DNA from: Vulcanimicrobiota bacterium
GTDB lineage: Bacteria; Vulcanimicrobiota; Vulcanimicrobiia; Eremiobacterales; Eremiobacteraceae
Reading direction: 5' to 3'
Assembly: GCA_963805945.1 (NCBI GenBank)
Contig: CAWDVP010000006.1
Coordinates: 288,001-352,000 of the forward strand
Length of the DNA: 64,000 bases
Shown here in pieces: positions 33,001 to 39,000 of the stretch (position 1 is its first letter; each line of letters opens with the position of its first letter). The position numbers were made by a program.

Positions 33001-36000
33001 CCGCGAGCGCTTCCCGCCGAACGCTTCGCGACGCGTCGAACAGGTCGAGCACCGTCATGCGCCGGTCGCTCCGCGATCCTGTGTGATCACAACCCGAGAT
33101 ACGCTTTCTGGATCTCGTCGCTTCCGAGCAGCTCATCGCGTGAGCCGGATGCGGTGATCCTGCCGCCTTCAAGCACGTAGCCGCGCGTCGCGAGCTCAAG
33201 CGCTTGCTTGACGTTTTGTTCGACGAGCACGACGGCGACGCCGCTGCCCTGGATGGTCTGGACCGCCGCGAAGAGCTCACCCATGACGACCGGCGCCAGG
33301 CCGAGCGAGGGCTCGTCGAGCATCAAGACCGTCGGTCGCGACATCAGCCCACGCGCGATGGCCACCATCTGCTGCTCGCCGCCCGACAGCGTGCCGGCGG
33401 TCTGACGCCGCCGTTCCTTTATCCGTGGGAACAGGGTGAAGACGCGATCCAGCTCTGCGCCCAGGCCCGCACGGGCGCGCGGCGTGTATGCGCCGAGCAT
33501 GAGATTCTCCTCGACGCTCATCTCAGGCCACAGCCTGCGTCCTTCTGGCACGTGCGCGAGCCCGCGTTCAACGACGCGTGCGGATGAAGCGCGCGTGATA
33601 TCCTCACCGTCGAGCACGATGGCGCCGGCGCTCGCGTCGACGAGACGCGAGATGGTCAACAGCATCGTGGTCTTGCCGGCGCCGTTCGCGCCTAGGATCG
33701 TGACGAGCTCGCCCGCATGCACCTCGAGGGACACGTCGTCGAGCACTCGGACGTCGCCGTAGCCGCTGGACACGTGGTCGAGCGCGAGCAGCGGCCGACT
33801 CATGCGTGGGCGGTCCCGAGATAGGCGTCGATCACGCCCTGGTCTGCGAGCACGCTCGCCGGATCTCCATCGGCGATCTTCTTGCCCTGCGCCATGACGG
33901 CGATGCGCGAGCACAGCCCCCGCACGGCGCGCAAGTTGTGCTCGACCATGACGATCGTCGTGCCGCGCGCGAGGATCGAGCGGACGAGCTCGATCGTGCG
34001 GTCCGTCTCGGTGTGGTTCAAGCCGGCGAGCACCTCGTCGAGCAGCAGCACGGTCGGGCCGGTGGCGAGCGCGCGTGCGATCTCGAGCCGCTTGCGTCCG
34101 GCCAGCGTGAGCACGCGCGCCGGATCGCCCGCGCGCCCCGCCAGACCGCAGAACTCCAGCACGTCGAGGGCGATCTGACGGGCGTGTTGCGGGTCGTGCG
34201 GGCGGGGCACGCGGCCGTAGAAGGCGCCGACCATCACGTTCTCGAGCACGCTCATGTGCGGGAAGGGCCGCACGATCTGGTGCGTGGAGGCCACGCCCAT
34301 GCGACAGACGCGGTCCGCGCGTCGGCCGGAGATCCGCGCGCCGTTGAAGTCGATCGTGCCGGCATCGGGCGCGTCGATGCCCGCGATCAGCTTGAACAGC
34401 GTCGACTTGCCCGCACCGTTGGGGCCGATGAGCCCGAGTATCTCGCCGGCAGCGACGTCGAGGTCGACATCGGACACCGCGACGAGGCCGCCGAAGCGCC
34501 GGGTGACGCCGCGGACGGAGAGCAACGGTTGCAGCATCGGTTCAACCATCGGCGTGCGCGCCGGCGGTGCGCCTCCCGATGCTTCGCCTCTTCGTGAACG
34601 CGTGCCACGCGCCGACGATGCCCTTCGGCTCGAACAGCACGATCGCGATGAGCAGCAGGCCGAACGCGAGCAGGTCGGCGTTGGCGAGCTTGGCGGCGAA
34701 CTCTTCGCGGATGAAGGTGTAGACGATCGCGCCGATGAGCGGGCCCCACACCGTGCCGACGCCGCCGATGATCGGCATGATGACGAGCGCGATCGCGGTC
34801 GAGAAGCCGAACACCGAGTCGGGACTGATGAAGAGGTAGTGCATCGCATAGACGCTGCCGGCGATGCCGACGAGCGCCGCGGAGATCGCGAGGGCCTGCG
34901 TCTTGACGAGCGTCGTCGGCACGCCGAGCGTCTGCGCCGCATCCGTGTCCTGCTTGATCGCCGCGAGCGCGAAACCGAAACGCGAGCGCACGATCCACCA
35001 CGAGATCCCGAAGGCGGCGACGCACAGCGCGAGCGCGCTGAGATATTGGACCGCGGGCGACGGCCCCTCGGCCACGGTGAGCCCCGACGCGCCGCCGGTG
35101 AGTTTGCTCCAGTTGAGGGCGATGAGGCGGGTCGCCTCGCCGATGCCGATCGTGGCGATCGAGAAGTACGGACCGCGCAGCCGGAACGACGGCACGCCGA
35201 CGATGATCGAGAAGAGCGCCGCGAGCGCGCCGGCGAGAGGCAGCGTCGCCCACGGCGACCAGCCCGCTCCCCACAGGATCATCGTCGTGTACGCGCCGAC
35301 ACCGAGGAAGGCCGCGTGCCCGAACGAGATCTGACCGGCGAAGCCGCCGATGATGTTCCACGCCGAGCTCATCGCGCCGTACAGGAAGACGAGGAAGAGC
35401 ACGTCGAGCACGTACTCGGCGTGCGGCGCCGCGAACGGCAGGGCGACGGCGACGAGCAGGATGGCCGCGCCGATCAGCTGCGAGACGAGCCCTTCCTTAG
35501 ACACCGCTTTTGCGCCGCAAGAGCCCGGCGATGCCTTTCGGGAAGGCGATGAGCACGACGACGAGCAGGACGAAGGAGATGAGGTTCTGCAGCGACGCCG
35601 GCATGTAGCGGACCCCGAACGCTTCAGCAATCGCGAGCGTGATCGATCCGAACGCCACCCCGGCGAACGAGTCGAGACCGCCGAGCACGACGATGCAGAA
35701 CGACTTGAGCGTGAGCGTCCGGCCGAAGTCCGGATTGAACGAGTAGAGCAGCGAGAACAGCGATCCGGCGAGGCCGAGCAGCGCGATCCCGATGCCGAAC
35801 GCGATCGCATTGACCCGCTTCACGTCGATGCCGACGAGGCGCGACGCGTCGCGGTCCTGCGCGATCGAGCGGATCGCGCGTCCGAGATGCGTGCGCGTGA
35901 GCAGCAGCAGCATCGCGACGAGGGTGAGCGTGCCGATCGCGAACACGTACACGCGCGCCCACGGGATGACGATATCCCCGCGCTGGAAGACGGCGTCCGA

Positions 36001-39000
36001 CAGCGGGATGGTGATCGATCTGGTGTCGCCGGTGAACAGCAGATACGCGACGTTCTGCAGCACGAGCCAGACGCCGAACAGGAGCAGCAGCGAGATGATC
36101 GGCTCCTGGTCGACGACGCGTTGGATCATGGTGCGTTCCATGGCCACCCCGATGAGGAAGAACACCGGGATGATGATGAGCGGTGCGAGCAGCGGGCTCA
36201 AGCCGAACGCCGACCACATCCACCAGGTCGCATAGGCGCCTATCATAAGGAAGCCGGCGTTGGCGAGGTTTACGATCTTGAGGACGCCGTAGATGAGCGC
36301 GAGGCTGTATGACATCGTCGCGTACAGACCGGCGACGAGCAACGCTGAGATGAGAGTCGATACGGTGTCCATCTCCGCCCGGCTACGGTCAGCGAGGCGC
36401 GCCGACCTGCGCTGGACAGGTCAACGCGCCGAGCTGAACCCGTTCGCTGTCACGGCATCGGGAGAACGGGTTTCCCGGTCGCCTCGCTCAGGGGCCAGAC
36501 CACGATCACCGATCCGGCCGGCAGATTCTGCGTCACCACGAACGGCAAGTTCACCTGGCCGTCGGCCTGGAACTTGACGACGCCGGTGGGCATGAGCGTG
36601 CCCTTCAGGTCGGTCCTGCGCAGCGCATCGACCACCTGGGCTTTGTCCGTCGTCCCCGCGGTCGTGAGGCCTAAGAATAAGACCTGTGCCGTCTCGTAGG
36701 GGAGCGCCGAAAACCACTCCGGGGACATGGTCGGGTATGCGGCGGCCCACTTCGCCACGAACGCCTTCACGGCGGGTCCGGGCAACTGATTGCTCCACCA
36801 GCTCGCCGCGACGATGTAGTCGACCCCGTCGCCGAGCGCCTCGCGCGCCGCCTTCTCGGGACCACGCGCGCCGTAGGTGACGAACTTGTTATGCAGGCCG
36901 GCCTGCTTGTATTGCCGCTGCATCGTGATGTAATCGTCGAGGTGCGCGTCGGCCATGAACGCGTCGGCGTTCGCGGCCTTCACTTTGGAGAGCAGCGGCG
37001 AGAAGTCTTTGCCGTGCAGGTCGAACGCCTCGCTCATCGCGATCTGGAAGTTCTGCGGATACTTGCTGGCGCATTGGCCGAGACCGTCGTTGAAATCGAC
37101 GCCGTGCGGCGTGTTCTCGTACACGATCGCCATCTTCAGCGGCTTCGGCAGCTTGCCGTCCGCCTGCATCTTCTCGATGAAGTCGCATTCGGTGAGAGCG
37201 AGCGATTGGATCGAGGCGAGCAGGCCGAAGATCGTGGTGAAGCCGCGCTGGTAGATCTTGGTGGCCGCGCCGCCGCCGTTGACATACGGGATCTTGTCCT
37301 GCTGCGCGACGACGGTCTGCGCCATGATGAGGTCGGTCGAGTATCCGCCCAAGAACGCGTCGACGTGATCCTGCACCGCGAGCCGCTCGTAGAGATCGCG
37401 CGAGGTCGCCGCATCCGTCTTGTCGTCATAGGTGATGAGCCTGACCGGCAGCTTCTTGCCGTACGTCTTCATATACAAGCCGCCTTGGTCGTTGACTTCT
37501 TTGACGGCGAGCTCGTACGCGGCCTTGAAATAGGTGCCGACGCGGCTCTCTTCTCCGGTCAACGGAAGGGCGGCGCCGATGACGATCTCGGTAGGGCCGC
37601 TCGACGTGTCCGCCGCTCTGACCGCGTTGGCGGCGGGAAGCAGCGCACATGCGAGAACGATGCAGACACTGACTGCGCGGCGTATCATAGGTCCCTCCTC
37701 GACGGGTGAGAGAGTGCGAAAACCGGCGGTCTCCTGACCCCGGTCACCCTTCAGGGGATGGTTTTGCAAAGCGCACCCCGGTCCTTCACGACGCAGATAG
37801 GCACCTTGTCAAGCGGGTCGCCGCATATCACAGTCGTCGCGAAGCGGAGGTGGGGCCGCGCGGACGAGCAAAGGGAATCAGCCTTGCCGGCAAACGGCCC
37901 GCTTTCTTTGGGAGTGCTATATGATCGTGCGAACGGCCTTGGTTTCGAGTCTGATGCTTGTACTCGTCGCTTGCAGCTCCAGCTCGACATCGACGTCACC
38001 CACGCCCACGCCAATCCCGCAGATGCTGTACGTGGGCAACACGAACGTGGCTGCGCGGAGCATAGTGACATTTCCGCTGACGGCGAGCGGCAACGCAGCG
38101 CCCGCAACGACCATCAGCGGCGCGCTCACAAATGTGACCGATCCGCTGGGCGTCGCCGTGGATTCCGCCGGTTTCATCTACGAGGCCGATTACAACGGCA
38201 ACAAGAACATCCAGGTCTTCAGCCCGGGCGCGACAGGCAACGTCGCCCCGGCGCGGACGATCACCGGCCTGAGTGATCCCCTCGGCCTTGCGGTCGATAG
38301 CGCGGGGGATCTCTATGTCGCGGATCGCGGCGCCACAGACGTGAAGGTGTTCGCGCCCGGCGCGAATGGAGCTGCGGTTCCCATCCGGACGGTCAGCGTC
38401 GCGGCGGCCGGTCTCACCGACGTCAGCTACGTCGCGCTCGACGGCGTGGGCAACATGTACGTCTCGGGCGAGAACAGCGGCCACATCGCCGTCTACCCGA
38501 CCTCGGCGAACGGCAATCCAGTGCCGCTGCACAACATCGGCGGAGCTCTCACCACATTGGTCAACCCGTACGGCATGGCGTTGGATGCGGCGAACAACCT
38601 CTACGTCGCGGACTACAACACGCTCAAGATAAGCGTCTTCCCGCTCGGAGCCGACGGGAACGTCGCGCCGGCGCGCTCGATCACCAGTTCCGGGCCTGCG
38701 TTCGTCAACATCTACGTGCCGGCCGTCGACAATCTGGGGAACATCTGGGTCGACGACAACAACACTAACACGATCTTCGAGTTCCCTGCGGGCGCGAATG
38801 GTGCGACCGCGCCGACGAAGACCATCACCGGTGCCGCCACGGGTCTCAGTGCGCCGTGGGGGATGACTATCCACTGATCTCGCGCGACAGCGCTCATAAA
38901 AAAGCCCGCATCGCTTCACGCGCTGCGGGCTTCGTTTCTTTCGGGCCGACTGGATTCGAACCAGCGGTCTCCTGACCCCCAGTCAGGCGCGATAACCAAG

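Follow-up and report, generated by a model that had tools for sequence, protein, structure and literature searches.

A survey of 26,277 genomes, covering 12 phyla with more than 100 good genomes, gives 96.4% of soil taxa as prototrophic and names Candidatus (Ca.) Udaeobacter as the notable exception (PMC10665431). The accessible text on Ca. Udaeobacter copiosus (Verrucomicrobiota) describes a soil aerobe of ~2.8 Mb that lacks synthesis of branched-chain amino acids (BCAA), Arg, His and Phe and is enriched in peptide transport and proteases (10.1101/053942), and a Ca. Udaeobacter relative is credited, in the part consulted, with a group 1h hydrogenase (PMC7343977). Vulcanimicrobium alpinus (or alpinum), which belongs to a family other than the one studied here, has many LivKHMGF systems, grew only with yeast extract, and showed no lithoautotrophic growth with its CBB cycle and 1h hydrogenase; the word "auxotroph" does not occur in the accessible part of its account (PMC9758169). 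As for the transporters, an excerpt on R. palustris reports that very few of 22 COG0683 proteins bound Leu, Ile or Val, the ligands being aromatic, fatty and dicarboxylic acids and the genes often lying beside CoA ligases (PMC3223731).

We analyzed a window, meaning a whole stretch of 64,000 nucleotides from an assembly assigned to the Eremiobacteraceae (G000; 2.31 Mb, 8 contigs, 81.92% complete), together with genomes of its family and class, all of them assemblies without a culture. The explanation that we favor with good confidence is one of peptide-fed soil heterotrophs with multiple auxotrophy, a mixed set of liv-type clusters, and a putative organic-acid cassette in the window. Literature searches combining the phylum with "auxotroph", or using family, order and species names, did not find this auxotrophy in print; Ji et al. 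2021, who reportedly inferred that the class (Ca. Eremiobacteria) prefers peptides and amino acids, may anticipate part of it.

The window cassette and the liv-type clusters

The window cluster has the layout of a HAAT/LIV ABC importer, with a Peripla_BP_6 binder, two permeases and two ATPases in one operon on the minus strand. The periplasmic binding protein, of the HAAT or "LivK-like" family (36450..37688, 412 aa; PF13458, E 1.6e-48), is followed by a LivH-type permease (35497..36372, 291 aa; TIGR03409, E 3.8e-45, and NF008011, E 7.3e-26, both below cut-off), a LivM-type permease (34542..35504, 320 aa; NF008450, E 1.6e-45, below cut-off), a LivG-type ATPase (33800..34537, 245 aa; NF008449, E 4.4e-54) and a LivF-type ATPase (33087..33803, 238 aa; NF008626, E 8.9e-77), the starts of the LivM and LivG genes being those of the gene model. 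The cassette's last gene, 28 bases downstream of livF on the same strand, encodes a MatB-like (malonyl-CoA synthetase-like) acyl-CoA ligase (31580..33058, 492 aa; 438 bits against NF005702, cut-off 558). A BNR/Vps10-repeat glycosyl-hydrolase-like gene lies to the left (30409..31524, minus strand) and an NHL-repeat gene to the right (38023..38877, plus strand). In the relative G016 the left-flank ortholog (C1:1788603-1789670, 85% identical) lies 2.2 kb from the right-flank NHL-repeat gene, with a phosphoesterase-like gene where the cassette would be; the cluster is an accessory module in the genome.

A BCAA-specific LivKHMGF system is the less likely reading of the window cluster. Its binder does not qualify as a LivJ or LivK ortholog: it scores 51 bits against NF011933 (cut-off 477), bears a distant likeness to E. 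coli LivK/LivJ (22-23% identity), and has no PDB sequence match at E≤1e-12. Homologues at 65-72% identity occur in Ca. Elarobacter, Ca. Velthaea and Vulcanimicrobiaceae, names that confirm the phylum of the genome. The best PDB match of the ligase is the malonyl-CoA synthetase 4fuq (E 1.8e-94), whose motif ERYGMTE reads ERYGASE here (ERYG retained, MT replaced by AS), and the gene stands directly 3' of livF in all three loci of the same genus (g1) and within 1.5 kb of it in 0 of 21 loci from other families. An organic acid is more likely than amino acids as the cargo; that the cluster imports an organic acid is a prediction we hold by a modest balance of probability, whereas malonate or methylmalonate in particular is a tentative one. 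In its most likely role, the transporter would bring in a small (di)carboxylic acid for activation by the cassette's own CoA ligase. Neighborhood evidence calls for caution, since the C3 cluster, with the most amino-acid-like binder, adjoins a benzoate-CoA-ligase-family gene. For the window ligase too the neighborhood may mislead, its place being away from livF in all the other-family loci.

The survey's finding had counted seven liv-type clusters in the source genome, which is correct (seven complete, plus one lone binding protein), and had seen in them BCAA importers expanded in the family to offset lost synthesis, which we consider improbable. One cluster does look the part: that at C2:196-201 kb is LivJ-like, with a permease 42% identical to E. 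coli LivH, a LivF at 54% and PDB neighbors named Leu/Ile/Val-binding. The binder at C3:162-166 kb is close to an Anabaena HAAT binder (E 1e-52), and 17/18 family genomes have at least one PF12399 match. However, the expansion is no family trait, being confined to two of the nine genera scored (8-14 PF12399 matches in g1 and g2, against 0-4 in 12 genomes of the seven other genera). Nor do the counts behave as compensation for BCAA loss: outside the family the median is 9.5 matches in IlvC-positive genomes (n = 18) and 1 in IlvC-negative ones (n = 34), liv counts rise with the number of markers kept (rho 0.47, kin not being independent) to a median of 11 in the 11 full prototrophs (again with non-independent kin), and the liv-richest genera of the class retain His, Arg, Ilv, Hom and Phe markers. 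All liv-type binders of the source genome are only 20-27% identical to LivK/J, and about two of the seven resemble amino-acid binders by their PDB neighbors; the C8 binder has as its nearest solved relatives 4ey3 and 4evq, whose ligands we take to be aromatic acids. V. alpinus, for all its liv systems, showed no growth when given Leu, Ile or Val alone according to the accessible account (PMC9758169). The clusters appear to be of mixed kinds, with an expansion in two genera; about two resemble amino-acid importers and one an aromatic-acid importer, and "livKHMGF" labels should not be read as BCAA uptake.

Amino-acid pathways lost and kept

The family-wide loss of His, Arg and Val/Ile synthesis withstood the use of further markers. 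HisD is found in 0/31 family genomes and is absent also from G000. Among the 18 family genomes at least 90% complete (91-98%), none has ArgG over cut-off (sub-cut-off matches of ~62-66 positions occur in six of them and in G000), IlvC or prephenate dehydratase (PDT), and three have homoserine dehydrogenase (Hom); second markers were scored in five genomes, IlvD being found in 0/5, and control markers are present in 14/14. The losses are wider than first claimed, extending to Phe and, in 15 of the 18, to the Thr/Met precursor. Of the BCAA claim the Val/Ile part stands and the Leu part does not, LeuC being over cut-off in 5/5 genomes and LeuA-like, LeuB, LeuC and LeuD proteins being conserved without IlvBCD (the LeuA-like protein falls below every cut-off). 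In G000 and the 92.6% of G016 covered by sequence searches, every step of the His, Arg and Val/Ile pathways is absent without remnants: HisG, HisD, ArgG, ArgH, IlvB and IlvC of class relatives had no match, and their ArgF matched only pyrB. Because the part of G016 left out (206 kb of contig C5) includes core genes (sdhA and sucC are missing from the covered part), the absences in G016 rest on whole-genome HMM searches. As a mark of the family against its class the losses fail: all five markers (His, Arg, Ilv, Hom, Phe) are retained in only 11 of the 42 other genomes of the class, and five genomes have none of them. The family would stand at the uniform end of losses that occur here and there across the class.

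Weak matches to ArgG, HisA/F, ArgC and ThrC were set aside as below cut-off or, in one case, as 24.4 against 23.6 bits over 62 positions; in both G000 and G016 those to ArgC hit asd. A Tyr-auxotroph reading was dropped when HMMs found the TyrA and class I-beta DAHP synthase that E. coli tblastn had missed, and since a real TyrA was missed in this way, absences based on tblastn only (MetA/MetX, ProA/B, SerC) are weak. ProC was discarded as a marker: it is present in 1/18 genomes of the family but also in 8/41 of family f2, and some genomes that are prototrophic in other respects are without it. A possible source of Pro, an OCD-family gene, is present in 5/5 family genomes.

Much else is kept. 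TyrA is found in 5/5 family genomes, chorismate mutase, DAHP synthase and AroB are over cut-off, and Trp synthesis, as had been noted, is mostly retained (TrpA in 22/31). The dap genes and LysA for Lys are kept, as are GDH and GS for Glu/Gln, GlyA and a SerA-like protein, and purine, pyrimidine, riboflavin and menaquinone genes. On the catabolic side, urocanase, arginase and the OCD family are each found in 5/5 genomes, and hutH, hutU, rocF, ilvE, pckA, CBS and the mutase are over cut-off in G016. To judge from these genes, amino acids would be burnt via HutH/HutU, arginase, IlvE with 2-oxoacid dehydrogenases, methylmalonyl-CoA mutase and PEP carboxykinase; arginase with the ornithine cyclodeaminase-family enzyme could give Pro, Leu probably comes from imported Val via LeuA-like/LeuB/C/D, and Cys may come from Met via cystathionine beta-synthase and lyase.

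The 14 peptide-binding (OppA-like) proteins ascribed to the source genome were recovered (14 by our own profile, 15 PF00496 matches). With 10-17 in all 18 family genomes, OppA-type proteins, not liv, are the family-wide trait. Their median is 14.5 (5.5 per Mb) in the family versus 10 (3.5 per Mb) in 42 others, with overlapping ranges and 17/42 non-family genomes reaching the family's lowest density; outside the family, density does not track auxotrophy (rho -0.08). SBP_bac_5 proteins also bind non-peptides. The lost amino acids would be taken from peptides, through these 10-17 OppA/DppA-type binders and a few amino-acid permeases. We thus favor multiple auxotrophy with peptide scavenging, because the pathways are missing whole, hutH, hutU, arginase and IlvE are kept, and none of the 18 family genomes has fewer than 10 OppA-type proteins.

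It is extremely improbable that gaps or poor binning in the assemblies account for the absences. The source genome is admittedly incomplete and indel-rich (292/1678 genes are <70% of the length of their G016 ortholog, against 102/1637 in the reverse comparison) and is without trp genes present in 5/6 same-genus genomes, but incompleteness cannot explain four markers found in 0/18 separate assemblies that are 91-98% complete, nor HisD in 0/31, when TyrA, LeuC, urocanase and arginase each turn up in 5/5 by the same searches. Alternatively, one could envision amino acids made by routes that the markers miss, such as reductive carboxylation of isobutyryl- or 2-methylbutyryl-CoA, and Phe through non-enzymatic breakdown of prephenate. 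One alpha/beta 2-oxoacid:ferredoxin oxidoreductase per genome (5/5 genomes) makes a reductive route to branched keto acids possible, and the CoA ligases beside liv clusters, the retained chorismate mutase and the Leu branch conserved without IlvBCD would all fit; the branched acyl-CoAs would come from liv-imported acids activated by the ligases. We nonetheless regard this as a distinctly unlikely account: all pathway steps are absent rather than one, we know of no alternative to HisD or ArgG/ArgH, the oxidoreductase best fits the general OAFO family (208 bits against a VorB cut-off of 399), carboxylation would still need organic precursors, and genes for His and Arg degradation are kept.

A further possibility accepts the auxotrophy and has it supplied by living cells, the family being predators, epibionts or necromass specialists on bacteria instead of living on dissolved peptides. 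Genes for a type IV pilus secretin and PilW-like proteins are present, and a murein-recycling cluster (anmK, murQ, nagK-like, nagZ-like) lies beside one liv locus; murein recycling is, however, common in free-living cells, and the family has retained genes for riboflavin, shikimate kinase and the MEP pathway (ispH), which in Pasternak's signature is said to be the non-predator pattern. Although soil Bdellovibrionaceae are auxotroph-rich in the available part of the 26,277-genome survey (PMC10665431), we think a living supply rather unlikely. Under the scavenging account, free-living existence is plausible, from the soil runs and the purine, pyrimidine, riboflavin and menaquinone genes; the auxotrophy and scavenging of the original claim are supported. 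Short contigs without differences were obtained from reads of three soil runs, all of one study, perhaps the source campaign. Read cover in those runs comes mostly from ATPase-like genes of other organisms.

RuBisCO- and hydrogenase-bearing members

One family genome (G010, 95% complete) carries prk, rbcL and cbbX genes that score over cut-off (NF005655, NF003252 and TIGR02880 among the models used), a form I RuBisCO set, and a hydrogenase large subunit of 598 aa with a PF00374 match and L1/L2 cysteine motifs that presumably fit the group 1h signature. G004 and G036 have prk-rbcL; in all, RuBisCO occurs in 3/32 family genomes, hydrogenase in 3/32 and both in 1/32, with neither in G000. What is new is that this 95%-complete member, with prk-rbcL-cbbX and a 1h-type hydrogenase, is yet without these amino-acid pathways: no HisD, ArgG, ArgC, IlvC, IlvD, Hom, ThrC, PDT, TrpA, GltB or PAPS reductase was found in it, and by gene content it would therefore be no true autotroph, being unable to build biomass with CO2 and inorganic N and S as its only sources. 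We lean toward the view that at least seven amino acids cannot be made by members with the "atmospheric chemosynthesis" set (G010, and G004 and G036 with prk-rbcL), and that these members would be obligate peptide-dependent mixotrophs. H2 would then serve maintenance, with the Calvin cycle supplementing carbon or acting as an electron sink, and much of the class may be in the same position.

If true, air-powered primary production would have as its namesake a lineage that itself depends on peptides, and if RuBisCO- and hydrogenase-bearing members need organic amino acids, autotrophy in barren soils is overstated when they are counted as primary producers. Should the auxotrophy extend to much of the class, where so few genomes keep all five markers, it would explain the phylum's resistance to cultivation in mineral media; the recipe that follows is low peptone, or His, Arg, Val, Ile, Phe, Thr and Met.

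Comparison with known systems

The window cassette is like HAAT importers (TC 3.A.1.4), including the pim- and cou-type systems of R. palustris as far as the accessible text describes them, in its five-gene layout, Peripla_BP_6 binder and adjacent CoA ligase (PMC3223731). It is unlike them in a binder without a solved relative at the threshold given above, in a MatB-like ligase with ERYGASE, and in an importer-ligase pairing seen only in genus g1. The prk-rbcL-cbbX genes and 1h-type hydrogenase of G010 recall the atmospheric chemosynthesis set (form IE RuBisCO and group 1h hydrogenase). What differs is that the combination is rare in the family and that the genome with it is without the His, Arg, Val/Ile, Thr, Phe and Trp markers as well as GltB and PAPS reductase.

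The family as a whole would consist of small-genome, GC-rich aerobic soil heterotrophs in which the pathways to His, Arg, Val/Ile (2-ketoisovalerate) and Phe are gone entirely and those to Thr/Met in most members. The 18 genomes with a completeness of at least 90% measure 2.2-3.1 Mb, versus a soil mean of 4.74 Mb in the accessible text (10.1101/053942). If this is true, the family and much of its class are, next to Ca. Udaeobacter, an independent second case with almost the same losses. Ca. Udaeobacter belongs to another phylum, is further unable to make Tyr and Trp, and lacks RuBisCO, whereas the present family keeps Tyr, mostly Trp, and the Leu branch, has mostly lost Thr/Met, and carries prk-rbcL in 3/32 genomes.

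Pathway losses within the family and across the class

We found that the losses of amino-acid synthesis in the family of the genome under study (f1, which the survey names Eremiobacteraceae; 31 genomes in 10 genera besides G000, the genome itself, in a class of three coded families) are real. HisD was detected in 0/31 f1 genomes, as compared to 89/116 in f2 and 3/3 in f3, the other two families; ArgG was over cut-off in 67 of 111 genomes (f1 0/18, f3 3/3, hence f2 64/89). The same direction was seen for IlvC (0/18, 17/51 and 1/1 in f1, f2 and f3, respectively), prephenate dehydratase (0/18, 17/41 and 1/1) and homoserine dehydrogenase (3/18, 33/51 and 1/1), and the marker-search controls were positive in 14/14 every time. 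Second markers were scored in five genomes, namely G000, its same-genus relative G016, and G004, G010 and G036: IlvD was absent from all five, in agreement with the survey's finding, ArgC and ThrC were over cut-off in none, and HisA/F appeared only as fragments of 48–64 positions. When G002 took the place of G036, GltB was found in 0/5 and PAPS reductase in 1/5, as a weak match. Queries taken from class relatives for HisG, HisD, ArgG, ArgH, IlvB and IlvC had no match in G000 or in 92.6% of G016; the ArgF query matched only pyrB.

The window spans C6:288001–352000 of G000. This genome comprises 2,306,167 bases in 8 contigs (∼66% GC, completeness 81.92%, contamination 0.08%), and its phylum is fixed by homologues of the window's substrate-binding protein named Ca. 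Elarobacter, Ca. Velthaea and Vulcanimicrobiaceae. Of its 1678 genes, 292 are short relative to their G016 orthologs; mutS2 (window 44321–46736, minus strand) is called as two overlapping frames, and three liv clusters and a 2-oxoacid oxidoreductase are likewise split, probably through long-read indel errors rather than decay. The sole close TyrS relative among the matches listed (70%) lies in a record titled 'Proteobacteria bacterium' (L169), which is probably a mislabelled member of the same phylum.

Among 42 non-family genomes, the number of markers kept out of HisD, ArgG, IlvC, homoserine dehydrogenase and prephenate dehydratase was none in 5, one in 10, two in 3, three in 9, four in 4 and all five in 11. 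Genus g13 has IlvC in 0/18 and prephenate dehydratase in 0/15. Five f2 genomes that are 96–98% complete (G011, G063, G005, G023 and G055) have none of the five markers, two of them (G011 and G063, 97%) being single-contig genomes; the same type of loss is repeated here in a sister family. What distinguishes f1 is thus the uniformity rather than the kind of loss. The surveyed loss of histidine, arginine and branched-chain synthesis stands, but not as a property special to this family, being patchy class-wide; we consider it very probable that multiple auxotrophy, of a known kind, extends through the whole of f1, exceeding what was first reported and recurring patchily in the class.

Other pathways are kept. 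TyrA is present in 5/5 genomes, alongside chorismate mutase, DAHP synthase and AroB; the absences of MetA, ProA/B and SerC are weak because the same E. coli-query route overlooked TyrA. Tryptophan synthesis is retained in most of the family, as had been claimed, with TrpA in 22/31 genomes (13/18 good ones; none in G000 or G010). The phenylalanine step is lost in 18/18 genomes, while chorismate mutase, DAHP synthase and TyrA (G000 C1:162.6 kb; L030:8073–10126) are kept; cost alone fails to explain the loss of Phe before Tyr and Trp. LeuC is over cut-off in 5/5, conserved there without IlvBCD, in an operon (G000 C5:24.8–33.3 kb; L101:12260–19911) with an APC permease, leuD, a leuB-like gene, a 280-aa gene and a thiolase; of the leuA–D-like genes surveyed, these are borne out, but the LeuA-like gene, at a separate locus, is atypical and under every cut-off. 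Genes of the dap pathway, LysA, GDH, GS, GlyA (in G016), SerA-like proteins, cystathionine beta-synthase and lyase, homocysteine methyltransferases, purC, pyrB, carAB, and riboflavin and menaquinone synthesis are present. On the catabolic side, urocanase, arginase and an OCD-family gene are each found in 5/5; G016 has hutH, hutU, rocF, ilvE, pckA, methylmalonyl-CoA mutase and its epimerase over cut-off, and two E1 alpha/beta 2-oxoacid dehydrogenase sets.

Importers and the window cassette

The seven liv clusters attributed to G000 are all complete, with one lone binding protein besides, and six have binding-protein orthologs in G016 (78–93% identical). Their proposed role, offsetting the loss of branched-chain synthesis in the family, is not upheld. 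Matches to PF12399, which are profile matches and not copy numbers, total 8–14 in genera g1 and g2 and 0–4 in the remaining 12 family genomes, so only two genera are expanded; outside f1, the median is 9.5 in IlvC-positive genomes (n = 18) versus 1 in IlvC-negative genomes (n = 34). Matches rise with markers kept (rho 0.47), although related genomes are not independent data points and genome size is a covariate (rho 0.53). The solved structures nearest to the G016 orthologs make the C2:196 kb binding protein LivJ-like and place that on C3 near an Anabaena HAAT binding protein and that on C8 near 4ey3/4evq, which have aromatic-acid ligands; for three others they gave no assignment. Of 22 proteins of this type in R. 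palustris, very few had Leu, Ile or Val as ligands (PMC3223731). The liv clusters are thus mostly a separate story from auxotrophy.

OppA/DppA-type proteins are family-wide, with 10–17 matches in 18/18 genomes (median 14.5; 5.5 per Mb), whereas 42 non-family genomes have a median of 10 matches (3.5 per Mb), 17 of them being at or above the lowest f1 density. G000 also encodes a single polar amino-acid ABC system plus six APC-like permeases, and no DtpA homologue was found in it. One liv locus (G000 C6:438–450 kb) is flanked by methylmalonyl-CoA mutase/epimerase on one side and a PHB-depolymerase-like esterase on the other; G016 has three versions with the same flanks (C1:1.93 Mb; C3, L024; C4, L025), with binding proteins 86–99% identical, differing permeases and a DUF4127 gene after livF, which are either strain variants or assembly duplicates. 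In both genomes, a lone LivK-like binding protein lies directly past menaquinone (futalosine route) decarboxylase and prenyltransferase genes (G000 C4:181.5–184.7 kb; L064:15989–19532).

The window's own cluster (33087–37688, minus strand) is, by gene calls and profiles, a five-gene HAAT-type ABC importer, followed 28 bases past livF by an acyl-CoA ligase of 492 aa. The closest solved relative of the ligase is malonyl-CoA synthetase 4fuq (E 1.8e-94), with ERYGASE versus ERYGMTE in 4fuq and a score of 438 against a cut-off of 558. The binding protein is 22–23% identical to E. coli LivK/LivJ and had no match in the PDB at E<=1e-12. Because the flanking genes in G016 (98% complete) lie 2.2 kb apart and enclose a phosphoesterase-like gene instead, the cassette is accessory; its GC3 (0.83–0.94) is similar to that of its flanks. 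Ligase orthologs occur in 2/31 f1, 36/166 f2 and 3/3 f3 genomes, and across the 24 loci inspected, the ligase is directly next to livF in 3/3 of genus g1 and within 1.5 kb of it in 0/21 others. The cluster probably serves to take up and activate an organic acid. A class I-like PHA synthase (window 24747–27806, minus strand; 586 bits versus 623), preceded by a gene resembling acetoacetyl-CoA reductase and by a second short SDR fragment, is a possible sink for cassette-derived CoA thioesters. Three soil metagenome runs, all from a single study that may be the source campaign, contain short contigs (151–256 bases) that match stretches of the cassette and its flank without a difference; they show soil presence only and have no bearing on attachment to other cells.

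Carbon fixation, hydrogenase and known auxotrophs

RuBisCO is encoded in 3/32 family genomes (G004, G010 and G036), and a stray-contig origin is argued against by their mutual identity (83–87%) and by the prk adjoining each. A NiFe hydrogenase is likewise found in 3/32 (G010, G014 and G028); the subunit motifs in G010 are TSRICGICGDNH and SFDPCLPCGVH, which together are presumably the group 1h signature. Our tallies include four genomes flagged unpublished (G036, G014, G048 and G129), among them one of the three carriers of each enzyme (G036 for RuBisCO, G014 for hydrogenase); the argument from G010 is independent of them. G010 (95% complete) has both RuBisCO and hydrogenase, together with 17 OppA-type matches, urocanase and arginase, and we found in it no HisD, ArgG, ArgC, IlvC, IlvD, homoserine dehydrogenase, ThrC, prephenate dehydratase, TrpA, GltB or PAPS reductase. 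Its gene content predicts that CO2, H2 and minerals by themselves would not support growth of G010. The CO2-fixing, H2-oxidising members may be obligate peptide feeders.

Our literature searches, which had Ji et al. 2021 outside their scope, found no publication on the f1 loss. The abstract of that study reportedly already inferred that peptides and amino acids are preferred substrates, and f1 auxotrophy may have had a prior mention there. The available parts of PMC11180709 and 10.1101/534180 do not mention auxotrophy. Yabe et al. count Ca. Eremiobacter, a genus to which G010 may or may not belong, among the HhyL carriers that could perform atmospheric chemosynthesis; their own isolate required yeast extract (PMC9758169). 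In soil taxa generally, Ramoneda et al. give 96.4% as prototrophic (PMC10665431). The known counterpart is Ca. Udaeobacter: a relative carries a 1h hydrogenase, and the authors caution that absent enzymes do not necessarily mean auxotrophy (PMC7343977), while Ca. Udaeobacter copiosus is rich in peptide transport and is without branched-chain, aromatic, arginine and histidine synthesis and without RuBisCO (10.1101/053942).
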